This document shows positions 45,640 to 59,518 of a stretch of 64,000 bases of DNA, in pieces; the first letter of the stretch is position 1, and the number at the start of each line of letters is the position of its first letter. The DNA is from Escherichia phage T5_ev219. Under the pieces are notes generated by a model. The model was not told the origin of the DNA and made no database searches. It worked only from the letters and a program-made list of their open reading frames with translations. The translations under genes and the position numbers were made by a program. The stretch is from sequence record NC_134263.1; one strand, given 5' to 3'.

Positions 45640-45721
45640 AGTTAATTTCTCCTCTTAGATACAATTATTATAATAGTATTAGAAAATTTTATCAAGAAAT
45701 TTTTATTTTTCCATAAAGAAA

Positions 45722-45742
45722 AGGAGGACTCAAAGTCCTCCT
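45722..45742 (-). terminator. rho-independent terminator after tape-measure gene
   Basis: aggaggact caa agtcctcct hairpin with minus-strand T-rich tract. Confidence 0.6.
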
Positions 45743-45748
45743 CCAGTT

Positions 45749-48700
45749 TTAAGAATTTCCTAGTGTTTTTAGGCTAGCACCATTCTCATTCAGAGCTAAT
45801 TCTACTGCATCCCTCAGAGCACCGCTATTACTAGAGGCGAATTCCCTAAAACTAGCAGCATCCATAGCACTAATATTCAGGATGATAGGCCTTCCTGAGG
45901 TTGAGTTAGATGAGGTTTTTAGCTCATCATTAGGCGTAGCTTTCATAGGAACCATAGGGGTAACTACTTCTGTACCATGCTCACCCATTTGATAGCTAAC
46001 CCCAGGGTACATATTACCACCCTCAGCACGAGGAACGAAAGAGTTAGCACCGCCTATGCCTTTATCGCCACGGATATAAGATAATTCACCAGCATTAGCA
46101 GACATAGACACATCTATATTCTTCTGACGCTCTCCAAGAGTTAAATAACTAGTAGTATCCGCTCCAGAATCTGCAATACTTGACATACTAGAGGCAGAGG
46201 ATGCCTGTGCTAATGCCAGAGCACCTGCTAATCCTGCCGCTACCATCAGAGGGATAGAGAACGGGTATGGTACAGCTGTTGCTGCCTGCATAACTGCTAC
46301 TGCAGTTTGGATGATAATCTGCTTCTTAGCTGCATCTTGTTGAATCTTCAGCTTTTCAGCTTCTAGCTTCTTCAATTTAGCTTTAGATGCTTCTGATTTA
46401 CCATCACGTTTCTGCTCCGCTGCGATAGCTGCATCAATAGCACTAACCTGTTGACTAGTACTATACTGAATCATAGAAGATACAGTTTGCATGCCAGAAG
46501 CAATCAAGGAGGTAGTATCTAGGGATCCCTGAGAGAACTGAATCATGGCGTTAGTTAAGTTACCCATACTTTGAGCCACAGCGGTTGCTTCAGAATTTAA
46601 TTCAGATAGCTTAGAGATTGCCTGATCATAAGAAGCCATTCTATTTTGCATATCTGCAAAATCTTTGTCTTCCCCAGATAGTCCAGTTGTAGGAGTGTAT
46701 ACAGCACCCACAGAAGATCCTACCTGTTGCTGCATTTGGCCTTCTCTCTGCTTTCTAAGTTGCTCTAGAGTAGCAGCAGTTTTATAGATCTCATTACGAT
46801 ATTTGATCTCTTCTTCGGTATTGCCCTTAGATAGTTCTAGCTGTTCTTGCAAAACAGATAATCTTTCTGTAAGAATCTGGGCTTGGCCAGTAACATTTCT
46901 TTGTGTTTGGCTGACTTCTAGTGCATCCATAAGAGATGATACATGTGATGCAGTTGCCTGCTTCTCAGCCTCCCATAACTCCCGGCTTATTTGTGCTTGC
47001 GCACGTCTAGACTGTTCCGCCTCTTTCTGTTTGTCCGCTTGTTTTGTATACCATTCGTACTTCTCTTTCTCTACAGTTAGTTCTAGTTTTAGCTGAGCTA
47101 ATCTATATTGAGTAGTAGTCATAGTACGGTCATTCAGAAGAGCTATCTCACGATCTACACCAAGAATTTTATCTGTGTAATCCTTGACCTTCTTCTGAGC
47201 TTCCATACCCTGATTGGTAAGTTTAAGTTTCTCCAGCTGAATTTTTTCAATTTCTTTCTCAACAGCTTTATTCCCCTGGTTTGTTTGAAGAACACGGCGT
47301 AAAGCAGCTTCTTGCTCTTCTAACTGTTGCAACTCTAAACGTCTACCAGCTTCCTGAGCCTTTTCCTTATCCTTAGTTTGATTATACACATCAGCTATTT
47401 TCTGTTGAACTGCTAATTGATTTTTAGTTTCATTACCAGTTAGTTTAACATACTCAGATAGAGCCTGAGATGCAGTTTTCATTTCAGACAGGGTGTTATA
47501 GCCCAGGTTAAGGTTTTTAACATACTCATCTGCACTCTTACCAGTGCCTAAGGATAGAGATTCTATGTTTTTTATAGCATCTGCTAAAGTAGCACTAGTT
47601 TTAGCAGCAGTATCTGTATTCTGAGCAACGTTCTGTATGTCATTAGCTAAGTCACTAGCAGTTTTCTTAGTTTGATTATATGCTTTCTGTTGTTCAGTTA
47701 GTCCTTTTAATACTGTGGAGTTAAAGTCATATACAGCACCAGGATCAGTAGTATCCCTCTGTAGATTAATCTGTTTTTGGAATTCTGGATTAGCTTTTGC
47801 AGCAGCAGCACCCGCAGCTTGATAGGCTGACTTCCAAGCATTAAGGTTTTCAGTAGAATCTTCTACTTCCTTACCTAGTCTGGTTACTTGTAGACCCATA
47901 GCCGCAGTTTCTTCTACGAACTTTTTATTAGCTTCGGAAGCACCAGCAGCAGCAAGACCAACAGGAATACCTTCACCAACTTGACGTATGGCTAATCTTG
48001 TATAGAAATCCGCTTGCTCCATTCGTTTATCGAATTCTGATTTTAGCTTATTACGCTTATCAAGAGATTCCTTATACATATCTAGAGCTTTATTATAGCC
48101 TTCTTCAGAAGCTGCCAAACTTAAAGCAACAGCACCAACGTTGGTAGGATCTATCTGTCTATTAGTTTTTTCTTGAGCTCTAGCTGCTTCAGCAGATACA
48201 GAAGCCTGAGAAGTATAAAATACTGTGTTGATAGCATCAATTACCGGCCCTAAATACTTAGCAGCAGCCTGCTGAATCTTTCTCAGCGCGGCATCAGCAT
48301 TAGCGGCAAATTGCTCCCATGGAGTAGCACGTAAAACTTCATCTAAGTAACCAAAACGTTTAGTAGACTCTGCTATAACAGCATTAGCATACGCTTGCTG
48401 TTTCTGGAAGGTAGTAAGGCTATTAATATTATATGTTATACCTGTGTTTGCAGCATTTAACTGTTTAACGTAATCAGCATAAGCATCATTAAGACGAATA
48501 GTAACACCAAGTTCATCCAGAAGTTCGATTTCCTGTTTAGATACACCCTTAATTACACGGTTAAGTGCATCAGTCATATCAACGCCAAGAACAGCAGCAG
48601 CACGACGAGCTACTAGACCAAATTTATTAAGTTGTTCAGCATCAAAACCGTATGCAGAAGCAGAGGATGCTTGTCTCATAGCTTCTTCAAAGGAAATAGC

Positions 48701-49429
48701 GTACCCGGCTGCTTCTTGTAGGGATCTAGCAAGGGACTGAACAGGAGTACCTGTCTGAGTACCTACTATAACACCAAATTTTTCTAGACGATTTAGCTGA
48801 TCACCTAACTTAAGTTGTTCGAATGCAGATTGCAAAACGAAGATGTTGGAAGCAAGAGCTGCATACATAATAGGTAAACTACCACCTATCTTAGCCATTG
48901 CCGCAAAATCACGAGTTGCACCACGTGCTGAACCAGAAGTATTACCAATAGCTCTAGAAGCTCTACCAGCAGCACCAGTAGTATCATTAAAGCCCTTAGT
49001 TGTACCACCTAAAGCTCTATTAGTATCGTATAACCTATCTTGAACTTTCTCTGTTGCAGCTGCAACATCATTGCCCATTGTTTTAACAGATCTAGAAACT
49101 CCATCAAATCCAACTTCTAGTTTATCTGCTACTTCAATCATTGTAATAGCTAGGTCATCCAGCTTAGTCCCTATATCATTAATAGATTTAGTAATACCAA
49201 GCATGCCCCTACTAGCCTGCATTTTAGTAAGACTTTTTGCTGCTCTATCTGCTGCCCTCTCAATGGAGTATAGAGTTTTGGGCATTTTACCTAACTGCTC
49301 ATTCGTTAGCTCAGAAGCCGCAGCAGCATTCTCTAATGCATCAGATACGTTTTCAATAGACTTTGCAGTACGAGTTGCCCCCTTCTGTTTAACGTCTATC
49401 AGTAATTCTCGTATTAGCTTATCAGTCAT
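45749..49429 (-). CDS. tail tape measure protein (pb2-like)
   Basis: 1226 aa, long coiled-coil-rich protein with Gly/Ala hydrophobic segment; position. Confidence 0.8.
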   Translation of the reverse strand: MTDKLIRELLIDVKQKGATRTAKSIENVSDALENAAAASELTNEQLGKMPKTLYSIERAADRAAKSLTKMQASRGMLGITKSINDIGTKLDDLAITMIEVADKLEVGFDGVSRSVKTMGNDVAAATEKVQDRLYDTNRALGGTTKGFNDTTGAAGRASRAIGNTSGSARGATRDFAAMAKIGGSLPIMYAALASNIFVLQSAFEQLKLGDQLNRLEKFGVIVGTQTGTPVQSLARSLQEAAGYAISFEEAMRQASSASAYGFDAEQLNKFGLVARRAAAVLGVDMTDALNRVIKGVSKQEIELLDELGVTIRLNDAYADYVKQLNAANTGITYNINSLTTFQKQQAYANAVIAESTKRFGYLDEVLRATPWEQFAANADAALRKIQQAAAKYLGPVIDAINTVFYTSQASVSAEAARAQEKTNRQIDPTNVGAVALSLAASEEGYNKALDMYKESLDKRNKLKSEFDKRMEQADFYTRLAIRQVGEGIPVGLAAAGASEANKKFVEETAAMGLQVTRLGKEVEDSTENLNAWKSAYQAAGAAAAKANPEFQKQINLQRDTTDPGAVYDFNSTVLKGLTEQQKAYNQTKKTASDLANDIQNVAQNTDTAAKTSATLADAIKNIESLSLGTGKSADEYVKNLNLGYNTLSEMKTASQALSEYVKLTGNETKNQLAVQQKIADVYNQTKDKEKAQEAGRRLELQQLEEQEAALRRVLQTNQGNKAVEKEIEKIQLEKLKLTNQGMEAQKKVKDYTDKILGVDREIALLNDRTMTTTQYRLAQLKLELTVEKEKYEWYTKQADKQKEAEQSRRAQAQISRELWEAEKQATASHVSSLMDALEVSQTQRNVTGQAQILTERLSVLQEQLELSKGNTEEEIKYRNEIYKTAATLEQLRKQREGQMQQQVGSSVGAVYTPTTGLSGEDKDFADMQNRMASYDQAISKLSELNSEATAVAQSMGNLTNAMIQFSQGSLDTTSLIASGMQTVSSMIQYSTSQQVSAIDAAIAAEQKRDGKSEASKAKLKKLEAEKLKIQQDAAKKQIIIQTAVAVMQAATAVPYPFSIPLMVAAGLAGALALAQASSASSMSSIADSGADTTSYLTLGERQKNIDVSMSANAGELSYIRGDKGIGGANSFVPRAEGGNMYPGVSYQMGEHGTEVVTPMVPMKATPNDELKTSSNSTSGRPIILNISAMDAASFREFASSNSGALRDAVELALNENGASLKTLGNS

Positions 49430-49452
49430 ATTTTATTTTTCCCAATAAAAAA

Positions 49453-49477
49453 GGCTCTGGGCAAATCACCCAGAGCC
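49453..49477 (-). terminator. hairpin plus U tract directly upstream of the tape-measure start (attenuator-like)
   Basis: ggctctggg caaatca cccagagcc with minus-strand TTTTTT; part of a duplicated cassette (see 54468-54487). Confidence 0.55.
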
Positions 49478-49512
49478 AAGCCTCATCGTGGAACGCCCAT
49501 TGGAGGAAACTT

Positions 49513-49881
49513 TTATCGCGCCCGAGATCTAGCATGTGGCTTAACGTTAGGTATTCTTCCGTTTTGCGGTTTATGCTTCTCGGCGCGTTTACGTGCAGCA
49601 TCTACAGCTTTAGCATCAAATATATTGATAATGTGTAGAACAAATTCTTTTTCTATAGGATCGGTAATCCCATAAATATCAAATAAAACACCTAGAGCAG
49701 CTTTATCTTTACCTATAAAGATAGGAAAGTCACCAGGTATGAAACAGTCAACTAGACTATTATAAATATTCATACTAATAGCTACAATAGGTGGAAAATC
49801 TTCAAGCTCAACAGGCATAGCCTTAGGATCAGGTTCTATACCCATTGACTCACAAAGTATTAAATATTGTTGTTTAGTCAT
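49513..49881 (-). CDS. tail assembly chaperone, downstream ORF (possible frameshift extension)
   Basis: No convincing RBS; frame open upstream to 49968, overlapping the end of ORF 49943-50347. Confidence 0.45.
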   Translation of the reverse strand: MTKQQYLILCESMGIEPDPKAMPVELEDFPPIVAISMNIYNSLVDCFIPGDFPIFIGKDKAALGVLFDIYGITDPIEKEFVLHIINIFDAKAVDAARKRAEKHKPQNGRIPNVKPHARSRAR

Positions 49882-49942
49882 TTTAGATGCTGAGCTTTTA
49901 ATACATTTATCAGCAAAGTCGGCAACAGCATCTAGTAGTTCT

Positions 49943-50347
49943 TTACGCTTTTGGGCTACGAAAAGTGTCTAAATGGAACACTGTTTGGTTGATCCAAGAA
50001 TCAAACGCAGCAGAGTTCTGCATAAGCATTACAGCATTGTCACGACTAAATGGAACTTCAGTATCAGGATCCGCATCTGTTTCAATCAGCATCAGTTTCT
50101 CAACATCACCAACTGTTAGACCAGTCCAACCTTTAATAGCTGCATCAACAAATGCTTCAATGAACTTGTCATCATCCTGTACTTGAATTAGAGTACCGTT
50201 AACCCATTCATCACGTTTAGCAGAAGAAATAACACGTTTAGAAGTAGCGCGAGACATATAATTGAGTTCTAATTTAAAGTTCGGCATACCTGGGTAGGAA
50301 AGAGTAATAGTACGGGTATCAAGAGTAATATCTTTTAAGTTAATCAT
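49943..50347 (-). CDS. tail assembly chaperone-like protein
   Basis: ORF track 49943-50362 trimmed to ATG (MINLKD) with GGAGA RBS; immediately upstream of tape-measure region. Confidence 0.45.
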   Translation of the reverse strand: MINLKDITLDTRTITLSYPGMPNFKLELNYMSRATSKRVISSAKRDEWVNGTLIQVQDDDKFIEAFVDAAIKGWTGLTVGDVEKLMLIETDADPDTEVPFSRDNAVMLMQNSAAFDSWINQTVFHLDTFRSPKA

Positions 50348-51242
50348 TTTTAATTTCTCCAAAGAAATCTATTCTCACTGGGTCTGAAGAAGCAGTAGGT
50401 ATAATATCCCACTCAACTTTATACACATCTGAGAAATCTAGGCGTTTTGTAATACGTGCTAAAGGAAAATCTATAGAAATATTATTATTTCTTATATTTA
50501 AAGGTACATCGGTTTCTGGTTCGATATTGTAAACCATATCTCCAGCAAAACGTTTTAAGTAATATAGAGAAATGGTTGCTGAAGCATTCATCTCATTTAC
50601 ATAGGCTCTTTTATTATTATATATTTTATTTATATCAAAAACACTCTTATCTTCTCTCCAAGAGCATTGCTGTTGAAAAGATAAAGAGGCGGAAATAAGA
50701 CCAGGTAAGATGCTACCGTTAGTAGAAACTATTACTGGGCTATAAGACATTGCTTCACCCTGTATAATAGAAGCTGCTTCTCTATATGTAGATACTTCGG
50801 AAAATTTCCCTGATTCGATACCAACGTTAAGAATTGGTATATTCTTATCTAAAGAAAAATCTACAGTAGATACATAGCAGTTCTCAAAGTATACACAGTT
50901 ATTATCTTTATTTACTATATAGATATTAAACATAATAGGTTCAATATTGTTACTATATAGTGGTAGTAAGAAAGTATTACCTTTCCTATCAAAACCTAGC
51001 CATTCGAAAAAATTAGCTTCAGTAAGCGTATTACTAAAATTTACTGCTAGAGAGATGGAAGAAGGAGTTTGAGCATTTATAATAGAGTCTGCATAGTTAG
51101 TTCTACGATGAATAGTCCTACGAAGGGTCTTAAATTCTTCGTAGGAGGTTTGTACATCATAGTTTGATAGGGCATCAAAATGAAATGCCCTACCATCATA
51201 CTCAACTATAACTTTTGACTCTCGCATTAGAGAGTAGTACAT
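50340..51242 (-). CDS. minor tail protein (p140-like)
   Basis: 300 aa; synteny after tail tube gene. Confidence 0.5.
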   Translation of the reverse strand: MYYSLMRESKVIVEYDGRAFHFDALSNYDVQTSYEEFKTLRRTIHRRTNYADSIINAQTPSSISLAVNFSNTLTEANFFEWLGFDRKGNTFLLPLYSNNIEPIMFNIYIVNKDNNCVYFENCYVSTVDFSLDKNIPILNVGIESGKFSEVSTYREAASIIQGEAMSYSPVIVSTNGSILPGLISASLSFQQQCSWREDKSVFDINKIYNNKRAYVNEMNASATISLYYLKRFAGDMVYNIEPETDVPLNIRNNNISIDFPLARITKRLDFSDVYKVEWDIIPTASSDPVRIDFFGEIKND

Positions 51243-51246
51243 TTAT

Positions 51247-52653
51247 TTAACCACCAGCACTAACTGTGATAGTTTTAGTACCTTCTACACCAGAACCGTC
51301 TTTAGCTACAGCCTTCACAGTAACTGCACCAGTTTTAGAAGCATCAGCTGTTAATAACCCAGATTCTGCATCAATCGTAGCTGCGTTACCACTAGAAATA
51401 GACCAAGTCACAGCCTTATTAGTAGCTTCTGGAGGTGTTACCTCAACAGACATCTGTAAAGTATTACTATTTGTTACAGAAGTAGCCTCACCAGCCGATT
51501 TAACTGTGATTGATTCGACTAGTTTTGGTGGAGTTTTAGCACCATCCCCCGTAGCAATTAGATTCGCTATTGTAGTTTTGGTATACTTGTTAGAGAAGCC
51601 TAAGTATCCTTCGTCACCAGTATCCAAATCAGTAGGAATAGCTTTAAACTCTACTGAAGTACCAAGTACATCATCAGTCTCAATAGTAGGGATGTTAACG
51701 TGCGCCTGTTTAGCAACTAACACAGCTGCCGGTCGCTCATCATCGTATTCACCACCCAAAATAAGTGCAATTTCAAAACGGTTAACTACCTTAAGGGTTT
51801 TGACAAGATCTTTGTACAGTTCCATGGAACCAAGAGACTTATCATTAAGGTATGCTGTCAAAGAACCCGTTAACTCAAACGCACCCGTAAATGAGCCGAT
51901 TGGAATATTTACACGTGACATAATATTCGGGGTTAGGTACGTGATGTTGTTATTAATGGTAAAAGTACCACCAGTAATAGGAATATCATATGCCTTATCA
52001 GAATCCATATCCTTAATTTTTAGGATAGTTAACTTGTTCTTTATATAAGAACTCTGAATAGTCATATAGGTTTCATCATCAATACCTAATGCATCTGGAT
52101 CAAATGGTTGGCTATCTAACGGGATGAGCTGATTACCATTACCAGACCAGGTTACACGACCAATATCCTCAATATCAACGTTAACTTCTGCCTGGTTGAT
52201 CTGGCAGGAGTCAATATAGCTCCATGCTTTATCAGTAAGAATGTAGATGTGCAGCATAGCCAACTCATGATAAGAGTTATCTTTAAAGTTAACCATGAAG
52301 TTAGCTTCATTATTATGCGCACCTGTGTCTCCCTCAAGGTTTAATGCTTTACCACTAGAAAGAGCGTGCCACAACATATAGTCGGGAACAATCTGTTTAT
52401 TAGAGGTTTTATCCTTGTATGGCAGGATATATGTGGAGAAGCTCCACTCAGCTGCATTCAAGGAATCATTAAAACGTTTAGAACCACGAGTAGGACGCGG
52501 ACCAGCTTCGTTAACAGTAATATCTGTTGAGTTACTGTCCTGACCCCAAGAAATATCATCCTGAACTAGAATCTCTTGCGTGTTGGTCTTATCGTGACCA
52601 GTCTTAACCGTAGACACGAAGATTCGAGTATTACGTAATAGTTGTAAAGACAT
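51247..52653 (-). CDS. major tail tube protein (pb6-like) with C-terminal Ig-like domain
   Basis: 468 aa; C-terminal Ig-like (BIG2-type) segment VTVKAVAKDGSGVEGTKTITVSAGG. Confidence 0.7.
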   Translation of the reverse strand: MSLQLLRNTRIFVSTVKTGHDKTNTQEILVQDDISWGQDSNSTDITVNEAGPRPTRGSKRFNDSLNAAEWSFSTYILPYKDKTSNKQIVPDYMLWHALSSGKALNLEGDTGAHNNEANFMVNFKDNSYHELAMLHIYILTDKAWSYIDSCQINQAEVNVDIEDIGRVTWSGNGNQLIPLDSQPFDPDALGIDDETYMTIQSSYIKNKLTILKIKDMDSDKAYDIPITGGTFTINNNITYLTPNIMSRVNIPIGSFTGAFELTGSLTAYLNDKSLGSMELYKDLVKTLKVVNRFEIALILGGEYDDERPAAVLVAKQAHVNIPTIETDDVLGTSVEFKAIPTDLDTGDEGYLGFSNKYTKTTIANLIATGDGAKTPPKLVESITVKSAGEATSVTNSNTLQMSVEVTPPEATNKAVTWSISSGNAATIDAESGLLTADASKTGAVTVKAVAKDGSGVEGTKTITVSAGG

Positions 52654-52679
52654 TTAATTATTTTCTCCTAATCTGTAAC

Positions 52680-53165
52680 TTATCTGCGAAGTGACCTACG
52701 TGGAGGCTGATACCTCACTGTTACATTTATTTCTGCTAAACCATATGGGGCCAGTAGACCCTCATCTGTACTAACTGATGTAATGCTCATATCAGTCGCC
52801 TCACATGGGAAGGTCGATCCATTAGGTTTACTAACAGTATATTCTAAATTTCCACCTGTGTCAATAACGGTTTTTATATCCGCTACGAGTTTTTCAAGTT
52901 GCTCTTGAATGTCTGTTTTCTCTTTATCGTACACCAGGATTGGAAGTTCTAAAAACATCCACTGTTGGCCTGAAGGAAGATACTGCCCAGTTTCAGTTCC
53001 GATATGAACTGCAACATAAGGAAACTCTCGTATCTCCTCAAACTTATAAGTTTGACGTGAGACGTTTCCATACAAGTTATTAAAATATTCATCTGGTTGA
53101 GAGCCATCCATTTGTTTGGCTATTCGGTCAACCAGAGCTTGTGCTATACTTGTTCTGTGATCCAT
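52680..53165 (-). CDS. tail terminator / tail completion protein
   Basis: 161 aa; position between neck and tail tube genes. Confidence 0.45.
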   Translation of the reverse strand: MDHRTSIAQALVDRIAKQMDGSQPDEYFNNLYGNVSRQTYKFEEIREFPYVAVHIGTETGQYLPSGQQWMFLELPILVYDKEKTDIQEQLEKLVADIKTVIDTGGNLEYTVSKPNGSTFPCEATDMSITSVSTDEGLLAPYGLAEINVTVRYQPPRRSLRR

Positions 53166-53168
53166 TTA

Positions 53169-53936
53169 TTAGGTTCCTTGATTAACCTTAATTTTGTATC
53201 TGGAGTGAATTAAGTCTCTTGCAGCTTTAGCTATCGCCTCTCCAATTAGTCTTTGAGGGTTTCTAGCACCTGGGTAGGGTCGTAATGACAATCTTCGATA
53301 TGTAGATACTGCAGGATTAAATACTGAATATGGGCGTACCATATAATTATATGTAACATTTAATTCAGGAGCACCTTTGCTAGTTCCAGCATCTCTAAGC
53401 ATAACATCTTTAACTTTTAGAGAATTTGCAAAACGACCTGTTCTAAATTTAAGTGGAGCTCCTGCTTTTTTCATATCCTTTATTAAGTATTCTTTAGCAA
53501 CCAACTCCAGAATAACCTTCATATTACTATTTGATACAAAACGACCAGAAGCACCTGTTACCGCACCAGAATATCCATCTTCTACGTCTCTAGGATCCCC
53601 GAAGTTTACCTGCACCCTACCAGTAGAACGTTTTTTACCTACAGAGGATTTTTTACCGGCAGTTGCTTGTATTAAATTCTCTAAAGCACCTAAGTCTCCT
53701 GTTAGATCTAAGCTAGAAGAAACTGCTTTTAGAATAGAAGCGGTCCTAACATTAAGGAGATCTTGGGATACAGGTTTTGAGAACTTAAAAGATACCTGAG
53801 CAACAGTACCGTCCCTAGTAGGATCTTTTAATCCTGTTTCAACAGAGTATACAACAGTATTCTTATTGTTCTCGGAACGTCCGACAGTATCTAGTTGCTC
53901 CTTAATAATTTGTGTAGCTAAATCAGAAAGAGACAT
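53169..53936 (-). CDS. neck / head-to-tail joining protein
   Basis: 255 aa; synteny. Confidence 0.45.
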   Translation of the reverse strand: MSLSDLATQIIKEQLDTVGRSENNKNTVVYSVETGLKDPTRDGTVAQVSFKFSKPVSQDLLNVRTASILKAVSSSLDLTGDLGALENLIQATAGKKSSVGKKRSTGRVQVNFGDPRDVEDGYSGAVTGASGRFVSNSNMKVILELVAKEYLIKDMKKAGAPLKFRTGRFANSLKVKDVMLRDAGTSKGAPELNVTYNYMVRPYSVFNPAVSTYRRLSLRPYPGARNPQRLIGEAIAKAARDLIHSRYKIKVNQGT

Positions 53937-54448
53937 TATACTCTCCTGTAAACTTCAATAATAGTACGAATATGCTCTGGAATACCAGACTTAGTATTAT
54001 TAAAAGTAACTGTTTCTCCACCAATTGTTTTAGCTTGACGGTAATCCTGTTTATGCCAATGATCTACTAGCATACATGCTGCAAGTTTGAGATCCTCAGG
54101 TATTGGATTAAATCCACCTTGTGTGTATTCTACATCCATATAACCTTCTGGGGGATTAAATTTAAGAAGTATAACCCCATCAGAATACAACTTATATTGT
54201 TCTGGATCTATCTCCTTGTCGTTAATAGTCATTTTGGTTACTGAAGTAGCCGAGGGAGAACTTAAGAAGTATTTTTTACGAGTAGGTTTTGTATTGATTA
54301 ACTGGTCTACCGCATCAGCATCATCCATACCTAAAAGGCTAGTAATCAGCGCATTGGCAGCAGTAATCATCATCTCTACTCCAGATTCTAGTTCAGGTCG
54401 TTTTAACCCACCATATAATCTATAGTCTTCAGCTGTGATTATTTGCAT
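53936..54448 (-). CDS. head completion protein
   Basis: 170 aa; immediately downstream of major capsid gene. Confidence 0.45.
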   Translation of the reverse strand: MQIITAEDYRLYGGLKRPELESGVEMMITAANALITSLLGMDDADAVDQLINTKPTRKKYFLSSPSATSVTKMTINDKEIDPEQYKLYSDGVILLKFNPPEGYMDVEYTQGGFNPIPEDLKLAACMLVDHWHKQDYRQAKTIGGETVTFNNTKSGIPEHIRTIIEVYRRV

Positions 54449-54467
54449 TTATTTTTCCCAATAAAAA

Positions 54468-54487
54468 AGGAGAGCCGAAGCTCTCCT
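54468..54487 (-). terminator. rho-independent terminator after major capsid gene
   Basis: aggagagc cgaa gctctcct hairpin followed on minus strand by TTTTTT. Confidence 0.7.
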
Positions 54488-54507
54488 TATCGGCTGAAAA
54501 GCCTGTA

Positions 54508-55884
54508 TTAAGATGCAGCGTAAGCACCAGATACAACGCCATTTGCAAAGTAACGTTGCAGGTTAACACGCTGAGTAACGTAGTATGCGTCACGCTGTTT
54601 ACCAGCTTGGCGCTCACGTTCAACAGTAACAGCACGCTGGCGTGGCATTACGAAGTTATCTTTATAAACAATAACTGCGAACTCTGCGGAAGTAGCTTTA
54701 GCTGGGAAGTACTCAGAAACTACAACCGGCAGACCATAAATACGACCAACCTGACCCTGCAGTTTAACAGCATCATTACCAACTTGGGCAACATCCTGCC
54801 ATTCTTCATCTTCCAGCAGATCATAGTAAGCATCCATAGATACAATCAGTACCAGTTTGCTCAGTTTCAGACCATGACGGCCCAGTTTACGACGCAATTT
54901 AGAGATAGTTTTAGCAGTTACCAGTACGGAACCATCAGCTTTAGCTTCAGTAATAACTTTAGCACTATCTTCACTAGCAAGAGTCAGCAGACCTTTCGGT
55001 TTACCGGAACCATCACCAGTCATGAAGGCTTCTTCAATAGAAACAGCGTGTGCTTCGATCAGACGCTTACGAAGCAGTGGCAGCAGGGAGAAGATTGCAT
55101 CTTCTTCAGTTTCATCAGTAATGAAGGACTTAGCAGCCAGTTTGTAAGTACTGAAGTGGATTTCTTTAAGAGCACCTTTAACTTCATCACCAGTAGTTGC
55201 ATCAGTACCATAAGTAGAAGCAGCAACCCAAGTAGCTTTACCAGCATCCGGTTCAACCAGCATAGTAAGAATCTTACTGGACATCGGCAGTTCTTCGAAC
55301 AGTGCGCCAACTACAAGCTCTTTCTGCAGGTCACGGATAATACGCTGAGAGAAAATAGTTTCATAGCTTTCACTAGAAACTTCTACAGAAGAAGACTGAT
55401 TCACTGCTTTCAGGTGTTTTTGACCGTGTTCGGTCTCGAATACGCCCTTTTCCATTACATAAGATAACAGAACCAGTTTTTCAACTTCATCTTCAAAGTT
55501 TTCCTGAGTACCGTACAGTGCTTTAGCAACACTATCACCAACGAAGGAACGACCTTCACGAGCTGTCAGCAGAGATTTAATTTCATCCTGAAGACCAACA
55601 ATAGTTTCCTGTTGTTTTTCTACAGTTTGTGCAAACAGTTCTGCGCTCTTCTTAGATTTCTCATCCAGAGACTTAACCAGATCCAGAGCCTCTTCCAGAC
55701 GCTTACGATCTTCGCCAACTGCTTTAGAAACCAGGTCATTCATACGAGCCAGTTCTTTTTCTTCCTGCTCTTTACGCATACGTTCAGCTTCCTGAGCTTT
55801 CTGAGCAGCGGTCAGACCTTCCAGAGATTTAGCCAGATCACCCAGACCAAGTTCTTCTTTCAGCTTATTAATATCAATAGTCAT
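54508..55884 (-). CDS. major capsid protein precursor (HK97-fold with N-terminal scaffolding delta domain)
   Basis: 458 aa; N-terminal coiled-coil scaffold-like region then capsid core; follows protease gene. Confidence 0.85.
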   Translation of the reverse strand: MTIDINKLKEELGLGDLAKSLEGLTAAQKAQEAERMRKEQEEKELARMNDLVSKAVGEDRKRLEEALDLVKSLDEKSKKSAELFAQTVEKQQETIVGLQDEIKSLLTAREGRSFVGDSVAKALYGTQENFEDEVEKLVLLSYVMEKGVFETEHGQKHLKAVNQSSSVEVSSESYETIFSQRIIRDLQKELVVGALFEELPMSSKILTMLVEPDAGKATWVAASTYGTDATTGDEVKGALKEIHFSTYKLAAKSFITDETEEDAIFSLLPLLRKRLIEAHAVSIEEAFMTGDGSGKPKGLLTLASEDSAKVITEAKADGSVLVTAKTISKLRRKLGRHGLKLSKLVLIVSMDAYYDLLEDEEWQDVAQVGNDAVKLQGQVGRIYGLPVVVSEYFPAKATSAEFAVIVYKDNFVMPRQRAVTVERERQAGKQRDAYYVTQRVNLQRYFANGVVSGAYAAS

Positions 55885-59347: not shown

Positions 59348-59518
59348 AGAATCTCCTACACCCCATGTAGAGCATTAATTTTTCTTGTTTACGTTCTATT
59401 ATGGGAGAAGTTCTCCCGATCAATGAATATAGTATACATAATCGTATCGAATTTGTAAAGGGGATTTTAAAATACAGGAATGGGATACCAACTGAGTAGT
59501 ATCCCATCCTATACTTAC

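Follow-up and report, generated by a model that had tools for sequence, protein, structure and literature searches.

The 64,000-nt stretch of DNA analyzed here (the window) comes from a T5-like phage (Demerecviridae). Two intergenic regions within its late gene cluster are considered below, and the genes, hairpins, leaders, promoters and conserved elements described are all encoded on the minus strand. In the first region the tail-assembly-chaperone gene (T5.142 homologue, 49513-49881) is followed by the gene of the tape-measure/pore-forming tail tip protein (pb2 homologue, 1226 aa, 45749-49429). In the second, the major capsid protein gene (pb8 homologue, 458 aa, 54508-55884) is followed by the head-completion protein gene (170 aa, 53936-54448). 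These genes were assigned from the ORF list and the annotation of relatives, with which the tape-measure and head-completion genes named in the original prediction agree. The head-completion protein was additionally identified by its Pfam match (PF24163 HCP, E = 2e-80).

A hairpin is located between the genes in each region, here named T1 and T2, the chaperone gene and the capsid gene being the last ones before T1 and T2, respectively. T1 (GGCTCTGGGTGATTTGCCCAGAGCC, 49453-49477) begins 35 nt past the chaperone stop codon and was predicted to form a 10-bp stem with a 5-nt loop (-19.1 kcal/mol). T2 (GGAGAGC-UUCG-GCUCUCC, 54469-54486) begins 21 nt past the capsid stop codon, with a predicted 7-9-bp stem, a UUCG loop and a folding energy of -12 to -14.5 kcal/mol; including two extra A-U pairs it spans 54467-54488. 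Both are co-oriented with transcription. An accessory hairpin (GGCU-UUUC-AGCC, 54492-54503) was predicted between the capsid stop codon and T2, of which GGC-N5/6-GCC is kept in relatives while the loop and stem bases differ. Each terminator hairpin is followed by the U-tract TTTTTTATT, at 49444-49452 for T1, where it was read directly and where most relatives examined carry the same string or a near variant, and at 54460-54468 for T2, where it is conserved in most relatives examined. The U-tracts lead into short leaders consisting of a weak Shine-Dalgarno (SD) sequence, GGGA, and an A-rich spacer. The tape-measure leader (spacer GGGAAAAATAAAAT, 49430-49443; SD assigned from the anti-SD duplex) ends at ATG 49429, and the head-completion leader (54449-54459) runs into ATG 54448. 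The original prediction had described the same order of terminator hairpin, U-tract, leader and ATG, which is correct on the minus strand at both sites.

T1 and T2 passed the terminator scan and both ranked as strong Rho-independent terminators. Using a re-implemented d'Aubenton-Carafa-type formula, in which a score above 0 denotes a terminator, they reached +43 and +34, respectively. Both stems are adjoined on the 3' side by UUUUUUAUU, in line with the U-rich tract of 7-9 nt expected of such terminators. A bidirectional terminator was rejected, since the plus strand has no T-run after either hairpin. Both elements are already known. In phage T5 (AY543070) the same elements are recorded as putative rho-independent terminators at 96553-96587 (after T5.142) and 101563-101586 (after pb8), and in phage HdH2 (MK373796) the orthologous T1 and T2, together with a third terminator T3 treated below, are likewise annotated as terminators. 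They are an ordinary kind of feature. T2 and its tail are sequence-identical between T5 and the window, and the T1 hairpin differs by one loop base. The shared tail described below is not mentioned in the T5 and HdH2 records.

A GC hairpin with U-tract was kept at both orthologous positions in phages of Escherichia, Salmonella, Klebsiella, Enterobacter, Proteus and Vibrio, and TTTTTTATTGG was retained in most lineages, the exceptions being Vibrio PVo5 and a few others. For T1, double compensatory changes were found in 7 of the 13 predicted pairs, all of them in the terminator stem (9 Demerecviridae sequences). Among enterobacterial Demerecviridae the T2 sequence does not change, even where protein identity falls to 39-58%; Vibrio phages carry a different GC hairpin instead, with double changes in 2 pairs. 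Furthermore, comparison of 26-27 unique close relatives showed hardly any variation in the intergenic regions, whereas the flanking third codon positions vary freely. A metagenome scan added one 32%-identity relative without the terminator and almost nothing else. Based on sequence and conservation, T1 and T2 are very probably Rho-independent terminators within the late cluster of virion genes in a T5-like phage. Measurements of RNA 3' ends or read-through for T5-like late transcripts were not found in the searchable literature.

The two sites share an exact 23-mer, CCTTTTTTATTGGGAAAAATAAA, at 49454-49432 and 54470-54448. It comprises the last two stem bases CC, the U-tract U6AUU, the weak SD GGGA and the A-rich spacer, and the copies lie 3' of two different GC hairpins and extend to the tape-measure and head-completion ATG, respectively. 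These were the only two matches in the window when up to 3 mismatches were tolerated, with 0 expected from 100 shuffles. An independent repeat search of the window returned the same pair and a third copy with 83% identity at 45702-45724. Thus, the window contains two exact copies and one related copy; the whole T5 genome contains one exact copy (at T2) and the related one at T3. The T1 and T2 hairpins themselves are unrelated in sequence, which refutes the earlier claim of a duplicated hairpin: the duplication extends no further than the last two stem bases, the U-tract and the leader. A restriction to two sites without conservation, which the original prediction had taken as an argument against itself, was not found either, as orthologous sites are present across the Demerecviridae in addition to the third related copy. 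A REP-/MITE-like dispersed repeat or a mobile element was rejected because of the low number of copies and their fixed orthologous positions in every relative, and concerted evolution or gene conversion between the T1 and T2 sites because variants arise independently at each.

The third copy belongs to a third late terminator, T3 (45702-45744, hairpin 45744-45720), found by the terminator scan and annotated in T5 and HdH2. Its tail TTTTCTTTATGGAAAAATAAA is identical to the T1/T2 tail at 17 of 21 positions in the same register. This includes an exact 11-mer, GGAAAAATAAA, which at T3 is not followed by a start codon. In the window and in T5 the 11-mer is confined to the three late terminators, always 12-13 nt past the stem. 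The tails of T1 and T3 are 75% identical over 36 nt, and the first codons of the tape-measure gene align with the -35 region of the promoter P-G25, whose homologue (TTGATA-17-TATAAT, 45667-45695, sigma-70 type, 11/12 in the scan and annotated in T5) is located directly after T3. An UP element of this promoter would fall on the A-rich block of the T3 tail. At the T5 junction of T3 and P-G25 (AY543070, 92087-92113 and 92013-92087), which belongs to the same late cluster, the tail GGAAAAATAAA is likewise found, spaced from the stem as at the other sites. Downstream of its A-rich block this junction carries the -35 and -10 hexamers of a strong sigma-70 promoter, with approximately 80 nt to the next ATG; T1 and T2 lack a promoter and lead straight into the ATG.

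T5 late promoters are of the sigma-70 type (PMC7472727). The promoter scan detected no promoter-like site with a -10 hexamer between the hairpins and ATG 49429 or ATG 54448, and with approximately 20 nt between stem and ATG no sigma-70 promoter would fit. A sigma-70 promoter with UP element at T1 or T2 was also rejected by inspection, since the counterparts of the P-G25 hexamers fall in coding sequence and match poorly. According to the scan and the T5 annotation, the sigma-70 promoters nearest to T1 and T2 are the homologues of P-G25 and P-J5, the latter a promoter-like site (TTGACA-17-TATACT, 52836-52864, 11/12) upstream of the tail tube gene. In the T5 annotation promoter P-J 5 is placed inside T5.146. 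Since no promoter lies between hairpin and ATG, the downstream genes would depend on read-through. Several other T5 terminators adjoin downstream start codons as well, so this layout appears to be a general habit of the genome.

For both downstream genes the anti-SD duplex of GGGA was calculated at -4.2 kcal/mol, which places both towards the weak end of the late region. The stronger late SDs lie at -7 to -10.6 kcal/mol; those of terminase, protease, DTP, a 164-aa gene, a 255-aa gene and tube ranged from -7.3 to -10.6 kcal/mol, and the capsid gene had -6.6 kcal/mol. The spacer of the tape-measure leader differs in length among relatives (AAAATATG, AAAACATG, AAATG). In phages of Klebsiella, Enterobacter, Proteus and Vibrio the T1 and T2 leaders are site-specific and carry ordinary SDs, while the terminator is retained. 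A special translation-initiation module, as originally suggested, did not hold up against these data, the leader being a short weak SD with an A-rich spacer for which distant relatives use ordinary SDs. The identity of the two leaders in Tequintavirus and Epseptimavirus most probably goes back to an old common design or to a duplication of the terminator tail, which T3 has as well, maintained under purifying selection, and does not indicate a dedicated regulatory module. A weak SD within an A/U-rich, S1-friendly leader need not imply weak translation.

The common descent suggested by the alignment of the T1 and T3 tails (36 nt, 75%) would also suit a reading in which the identity is a functionless relic of duplication and the hairpins act mainly post-transcriptionally, in RNA stability or processing, where they would block 3' exonucleases once an RNase has cut within the A/U-rich tail, or as sites at the DNA level. 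An A/U-rich single strand beside a stable hairpin would be in keeping with an RNase E-type context, and the site just past the T1 U-tract has gained extra genes repeatedly. We regard this reading as very improbable. A perfect GC stem that runs straight into U6AUU behind a gene, in the direction of its transcription, is the canonical signature of an intrinsic terminator. A relic devoid of function, in turn, would be expected to vary as the nearby synonymous sites do. Moreover, stabilization and termination are not mutually exclusive.

Directly 5' of T1 we found a non-coding element of 35 nt (AAAGTTTCCTCCAATGGGCGTTCCACGATGAGGCTT, 49478-49512), present in one copy in the genome. It is invariant in 26 unique Tequintavirus/Epseptimavirus sequences whose flanking third codon positions vary, and it is recognizable in phages of Klebsiella, Enterobacter, Proteus and Vibrio. 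Indels of 1 nt among relatives rule out that the element is coding. For the same reason, and because of tandem stops in Klebsiella phages, a coding sequence, uORF, frameshift or read-through extension across the T1 intergenic region (59-aa ORF, 49422-49601) was rejected. The element may fold into a small two-tier stem-loop (CCUC/GAGG and UGG/CCA), as modelled; the proposed pairs scarcely vary in the sequences at hand. A degenerate pattern scan of IMG/VR returned mostly chance matches, and the element followed by hairpin and T-run was found in T5-like contigs only, apart from one chance match (L155).

A strongly conserved element in this position, containing the anti-SD-like CCUCC, could point to T1 as a regulated attenuator, in which the element would form an antiterminator or sequester the tape-measure SD in response to a signal. 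Inspection of the sequences showed possible pairing of UUUCC(U) with the leader's GG(G)AAA for Escherichia and Klebsiella phages as well as a 106-kb relative; for Proteus, AAUUUC and GAAAUU would be the partners. However, the MFE structure kept the terminator hairpin intact in all eight lineages folded, the upstream element of the enteric lineages pairs internally, and the pairing with the SD is lost in Enterobacter and Vibrio phages. There is also no leader peptide, coding being excluded by the 1-nt indels. Folds of the eight lineages, including truncated transcripts, gave no conserved pairing with the 5' arm of T1. Antiterminator formation or SD sequestration by the CCUCC element was rejected, as no pairing is kept across lineages. 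Rfam yielded no match for the whole window at the gathering threshold, and at E <= 10 only sub-threshold sRNA or terminator look-alikes for both sites. The conserved attenuator of the original prediction was therefore without an Rfam match and without a conserved alternative pairing to the terminator 5' arm, and we consider a regulated attenuator at T1 distinctly unlikely.

A terminator and a ribosome binding site alone leave two features unaccounted for, namely the GGAAAAATAAA tail of T3 and the conservation of the 35-nt element. In an alternative reading the shared tail (U-tract and GG(G)AAAAAUAAA), possibly with the 35-nt stem-loop, would serve as the operator of a trans-acting phage or host factor co-regulating read-through or translation of the genes for low-copy virion proteins. 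Candidates would be a protein that represses translation, one that suppresses or enhances termination, a CsrA-like binder of GGA, or an sRNA. The confinement of GGAAAAATAAA to the late terminators at a fixed distance from the stem and a tail almost invariant in 26-27 relatives are consistent with such an operator. The tail is predicted to form a small A-U hairpin, with GGGAAA exposed in the loop, and the 35-nt element has kept its sequence and shows little covariation, a pattern expected of a protein-binding site. Against this, the leaders in Klebsiella, Enterobacter, Proteus and Vibrio phages differ between the sites and have ordinary SDs although the terminator stays, and in close relatives the two sites vary independently without concerted change. 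The A-U hairpin amounts to merely -1.5 to -2.4 kcal/mol, and any U-tract with an A-tract would form one. We know of no candidate factor, and such an operator seems unlikely to us. Equally unlikely is the broader proposal that the tail of the three late terminators and the 35-nt stem-loop form a factor recognition site tuning termination, read-through or translation, or that transcripts terminated at T1 yield a 3'-UTR-derived sRNA with the anti-SD-like CCUCC as seed.

If T1 and T2 are taken as constitutive terminators, a role in stoichiometry is in keeping with their position, with genes of high-copy virion proteins on one side and of low-copy ones on the other. The upstream genes include those of the high-copy capsid and tube, the tail tube consisting of 40 trimers (120 copies) (PMC5717097). 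The downstream genes encode low-copy proteins: the head-completion protein is a dodecamer and TCP a hexamer (PMC10713586), the former making up a 12-copy ring, and the tape measure is a trimer (PMC10038345), present in 3 copies. Having started at sigma-70 late promoters further upstream, host RNA polymerase would terminate at T1 or T2 in most rounds, leaving an abundant mRNA with a protective 3' hairpin for the upstream genes (the capsid operon; the tube and chaperone genes). Only the read-through fraction would reach the head-completion/neck genes and the tape-measure gene, where the weak SD in an unstructured A/U-rich leader would then set the level of translation. Termination and weak SD together would match the fall in required copy number, and would be an ordinary means of reducing expression from high-copy to low-copy virion proteins. 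Both the termination efficiency and the stoichiometric role are inferred. T1 follows the low-abundance chaperone genes and not the tube gene directly, and the high-to-low-copy logic is less clean there.

Comparable partial terminators are known from E. coli and its phages, such as the rplL-rpoB attenuator, the T1 terminator of rpsU-dnaG with its poor dnaG ribosome binding site, and the terminator after coat gene VIII of f1/M13. These are likewise constitutive intercistronic terminators, sometimes with a weak ribosome binding site, giving differential expression within one transcription unit; there this was shown experimentally, whereas here it is deduced from sequence, conservation and virion copy numbers. 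In phage T7 the intrinsic terminator T-phi lies just downstream of the major capsid gene 10 and is incomplete, read-through resulting in lower expression of downstream virion genes. T2 resembles T-phi, as read from its sequence, in lying directly past the gene of the most abundant virion protein. The two differ in that T-phi acts on T7 RNA polymerase while T5-like late genes use host sigma-70 RNA polymerase (PMC7472727).

Conserved intrinsic terminators thus divide the T5-like late region, a finding of small importance by itself. Two classes of late terminators can be separated, those combined with a promoter (T3/P-G25; after the terminase gene) and those without (T1 and T2). In the latter class, the genes of the low-copy head-completion ring and tape measure would be reached only after a drop in transcription and translated from a weak SD. 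This may be useful for the annotation and engineering of T5-like phages, since indels at the T1 and T2 junctions would be expected to change virion protein ratios.

The T1 junction of T5 differs from that of the window. Right after the T1 U-tract T5 carries an inserted gene, T5.141, encoding 250 aa with CapR homology and a treble-clef (homing-endonuclease-like) domain; no homology was found to the ORF of Vibrio phages at the same spot. The repeated leader survives in T5 at T2 only.

Segment 49000-55000 of phage T5_ev219 matched 548 phage records, all of them T5-like (Demerecviridae: Tequintavirus, Epseptimavirus and others), with Salmonella phage VSe12 as the best match (96.8% identity). The minus strand carries the late (virion) genes in the order terminase, portal, protease, major capsid (54508-55884), head-completion (53936-54448), two neck genes, tail tube, minor tail, two chaperone ORFs (the last at 49513-49881), tape measure (45749-49429) and distal tail protein (DTP). 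The 122-aa second chaperone ORF has virtually no Shine-Dalgarno (SD) sequence (-0.1 kcal/mol) and is located 61 nt past the first one (49943-50362, minus strand) and in the +1 frame with respect to that ORF, an arrangement that would fit expression as a frameshift fusion resembling lambda G/GT.

Within the window, CCTTTTTTATTGGGAAAAATAAA was found only at 49454-49432 and 54470-54448 of the minus strand, even when 3 mismatches were allowed, and shuffled sequences gave an expectation of 0. A repeat search independently identified the same pair. In the 5' to 3' direction of the minus strand, the site of hairpin T1 (49453-49477), between the last chaperone gene and the tape-measure gene, consists of GGCTCTGGGT-GATTT-GCCCAGAGCC followed by TTTTTTATT, GGGAAAAATAAA, AT and the ATG of the tape-measure gene. 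The site of hairpin T2 (54469-54486, minus strand), between the major capsid and head-completion genes, is composed of GGAGAGC-TTCG-GCTCTCC, TTTTTTATT, GGGAAAAATAA and the ATG of the head-completion gene. The sequences of the two hairpins are unrelated.

The original prediction had proposed a duplicated hairpin-plus-leader cassette, possibly an attenuator or translation-initiation module. The two exact copies were correctly observed and the interpretation is largely right; however, only the U-tract and leader are duplicated, the hairpin sequences being different, and a regulated attenuator found no support. In MFE folds of 8 lineages the terminator hairpin stayed intact in all, and folds of truncated transcripts from 8 lineages revealed no conserved pairing with the 5' arm of the terminator. 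A leader pairing of UUUCC(U) with GG(G)AAA is possible in several enteric lineages, though not in Enterobacter or Vibrio phages, and a small U-tract/A-tract hairpin with GGGAAA in its loop reached only -1.5 to -2.4 kcal/mol.

Both T1 and T2 passed a terminator scan. The predicted folding energies were -19.1 kcal/mol for T1 and -12 to -14.5 kcal/mol for T2, which has a UUCG loop, and U6AUU directly follows both stems on the 3' side. A d'Aubenton-Carafa-type score, calculated with a re-implemented formula, was +43 for T1 and +34 for T2 (values above 0 indicating a terminator). In the T5 record AY543070 both counterparts are labelled 'putative rho-independent transcription terminator', and they are likewise annotated as terminators in the record of phage HdH2; Rfam contained no family for either region. 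T1 and T2 are the elements already on record for T5 and relatives. In kind they are ordinary operon-internal intrinsic terminators, comparable to T-phi of T7, located after capsid gene 10, and the rplL-rpoB and rpsU-dnaG terminators of E. coli. Early regions of T5 contain further annotated terminators with the next start codon close downstream (AY543070: 13864-13898, 64929-64948 and 76783-76805), the second with a GGGA-type SD at the next gene. Since several other T5 terminators are located close upstream of a start codon, terminator-only junctions are a general feature of the genome, and the layout is a genome habit rather than a special module.

The motif was present at both sites in 29 IMG/VR relatives with only scattered single changes, independent at each site. 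Both intergenic regions were almost invariant in 26-27 unique Tequintavirus/Epseptimavirus sequences, and the flanking third codon positions varied freely. Among relatives reaching down to 29% head-completion protein identity, a GC hairpin with U-tract was found at both orthologous positions in Klebsiella, Enterobacter, Proteus and Vibrio phages, most of those examined still having TTTTTTATTGG. These distant relatives have other leaders 3' of the U-tract (for example GGGTAAAATATG and GGAAAAAATCATG in Klebsiella phages, GGAGGTAATAAAATG and AGGAGAAAACTCATAATG in Vibrio phage phi3). Only in Tequintavirus/Epseptimavirus are the leaders of the two sites exactly identical; what is kept across the wider family is just a U-tract, then GG and an A/T-rich spacer. 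Double compensatory changes were present at 7 predicted pairs of the T1 stem. T2 was identical in sequence in the enteric phages, and Vibrio phages have another GC hairpin instead. With both sites kept in relatives, the outcome that would have refuted the original prediction (a motif at these two sites only, without conservation) is not what was found.

A third late terminator, T3 (45702-45744, minus strand), has its hairpin at 45744-45720, just past the tape-measure gene. Its tail TTTTCTTTATGGAAAAATAAA is identical to the T1/T2 tail at 17 of 21 positions in the same register, including the exact 11-mer GGAAAAATAAA, and T1 and T3 tails share 75% identity across a 36-nt alignment. The 11-mer did not occur in the T5 genome or the window beyond the three late terminators, and all 14 other annotated T5 terminators lack the shared tail. 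T3 is followed by a strong sigma-70 promoter, the homologue of T5 P-G25 (45667-45695, minus strand), and the A-rich block of the T3 tail would be at the position of this promoter's UP element. We read the tail as an old duplication or a shared design held by selection, which would serve as translation start region at T1 and T2 and as upstream promoter element at T3. A common trans-acting factor would be a much less likely alternative.

The gap from the chaperone stop codon to T1 is filled by a 35-nt element (49512-49478, minus strand; AAAGTTTCCTCCAATGGGCGTTCCACGATGAGGCTT) containing CCUCC and GGGCGUUCCACGA. This single-copy element is invariant in close relatives and traceable out to Vibrio phages, there as GAGTCCTCAAGGGCATTTCCACGAG; 1-nt indels among relatives indicate that it is non-coding. 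In IMG/VR, the element followed by a hairpin and T-run was found only in T5-like contigs, with the exception of one chance match. It can, as modelled, form a small two-tier stem-loop, the proposed pairs of which hardly vary among sequences. Together with the tail common to three late terminators, it represents a small new detail. T2, too, is preceded by a small hairpin (GGCU-UUUC-AGCC, 54492-54503, minus strand), which follows the capsid stop codon. In relatives a GGC-N5/6-GCC hairpin is kept at this place, its loop and stem bases being different; a small hairpin thus stands before the main one at both terminator-only sites.

Transcription of the T5 late genes starts at sigma-70 promoters and relies on the sigma-70 RNA polymerase of the host (PMC7472727). 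In the T5 record, P-J5 lies within T5.146, ahead of the tube gene, and P-G25 follows the tape-measure terminator; the window has a strong counterpart of each (52864-52836 and 45695-45667, respectively). The distance from hairpin to ATG is only about 20 nt at both T1 and T2, so no promoter fits in between, and the head-completion and neck genes as well as the tape-measure gene must depend on read-through. Polymerase would terminate at T1 and T2, with partial read-through reaching the downstream genes. The head-completion and tape-measure genes both have a GGGA SD (-4.2 kcal/mol), which ranks with the weaker SDs of the late region. Higher scores were obtained for most of the well-expressed genes (terminase -10.6, protease -9.3, DTP -9.1, tube -7.3 and capsid -6.6 kcal/mol). 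Capsid protein is required in hundreds of copies. The head-completion protein forms a dodecamer, the tail-completion protein a hexamer (PMC10713586) and the tape measure a trimer (PMC10038345), and the tail tube is built from 40 trimers (PMC5717097). These copy numbers fit a step-down across T1 and T2, and termination with read-through may in this way contribute to virion protein stoichiometry.

Past the terminase gene we found a long hairpin (59478-59509, minus strand) with a poor T-tail and a score below 0, followed by a promoter-like site (TTTACA-17-TATACT, 59431-59459, minus strand). The two may form a further terminator-plus-promoter junction at the head of the capsid operon.

Two short records labelled Listeria phage LM 4-14-1 contain sequence of T5 type: OR848485.1 matches the head-completion protein at 85% protein identity, and OR848532.1 the T1 intergenic region at 96% DNA identity. 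Both are probably mislabelled or contaminated. In Salmonella phage SP_Thor (MW411578/NC_103484) the chaperone/tape-measure junction bears the annotation of nucleotide-metabolism genes, which probably reflects an offset in the annotation.

Extra genes were repeatedly gained right after the T1 U-tract. T5 (T5.141, L031:12520-13272) and phage IrisVonRoten carry here a 250-aa homing-endonuclease-like ORF with CapR homology and a treble clef, and in T5 this insertion took the place of the repeated leader. In the Vibrio phages phi3 and PVo5 this spot is occupied by an ORF about 251 aa long (L034:12548-13303 and L071:6562-7320), that of phi3 being unrelated to T5.141.
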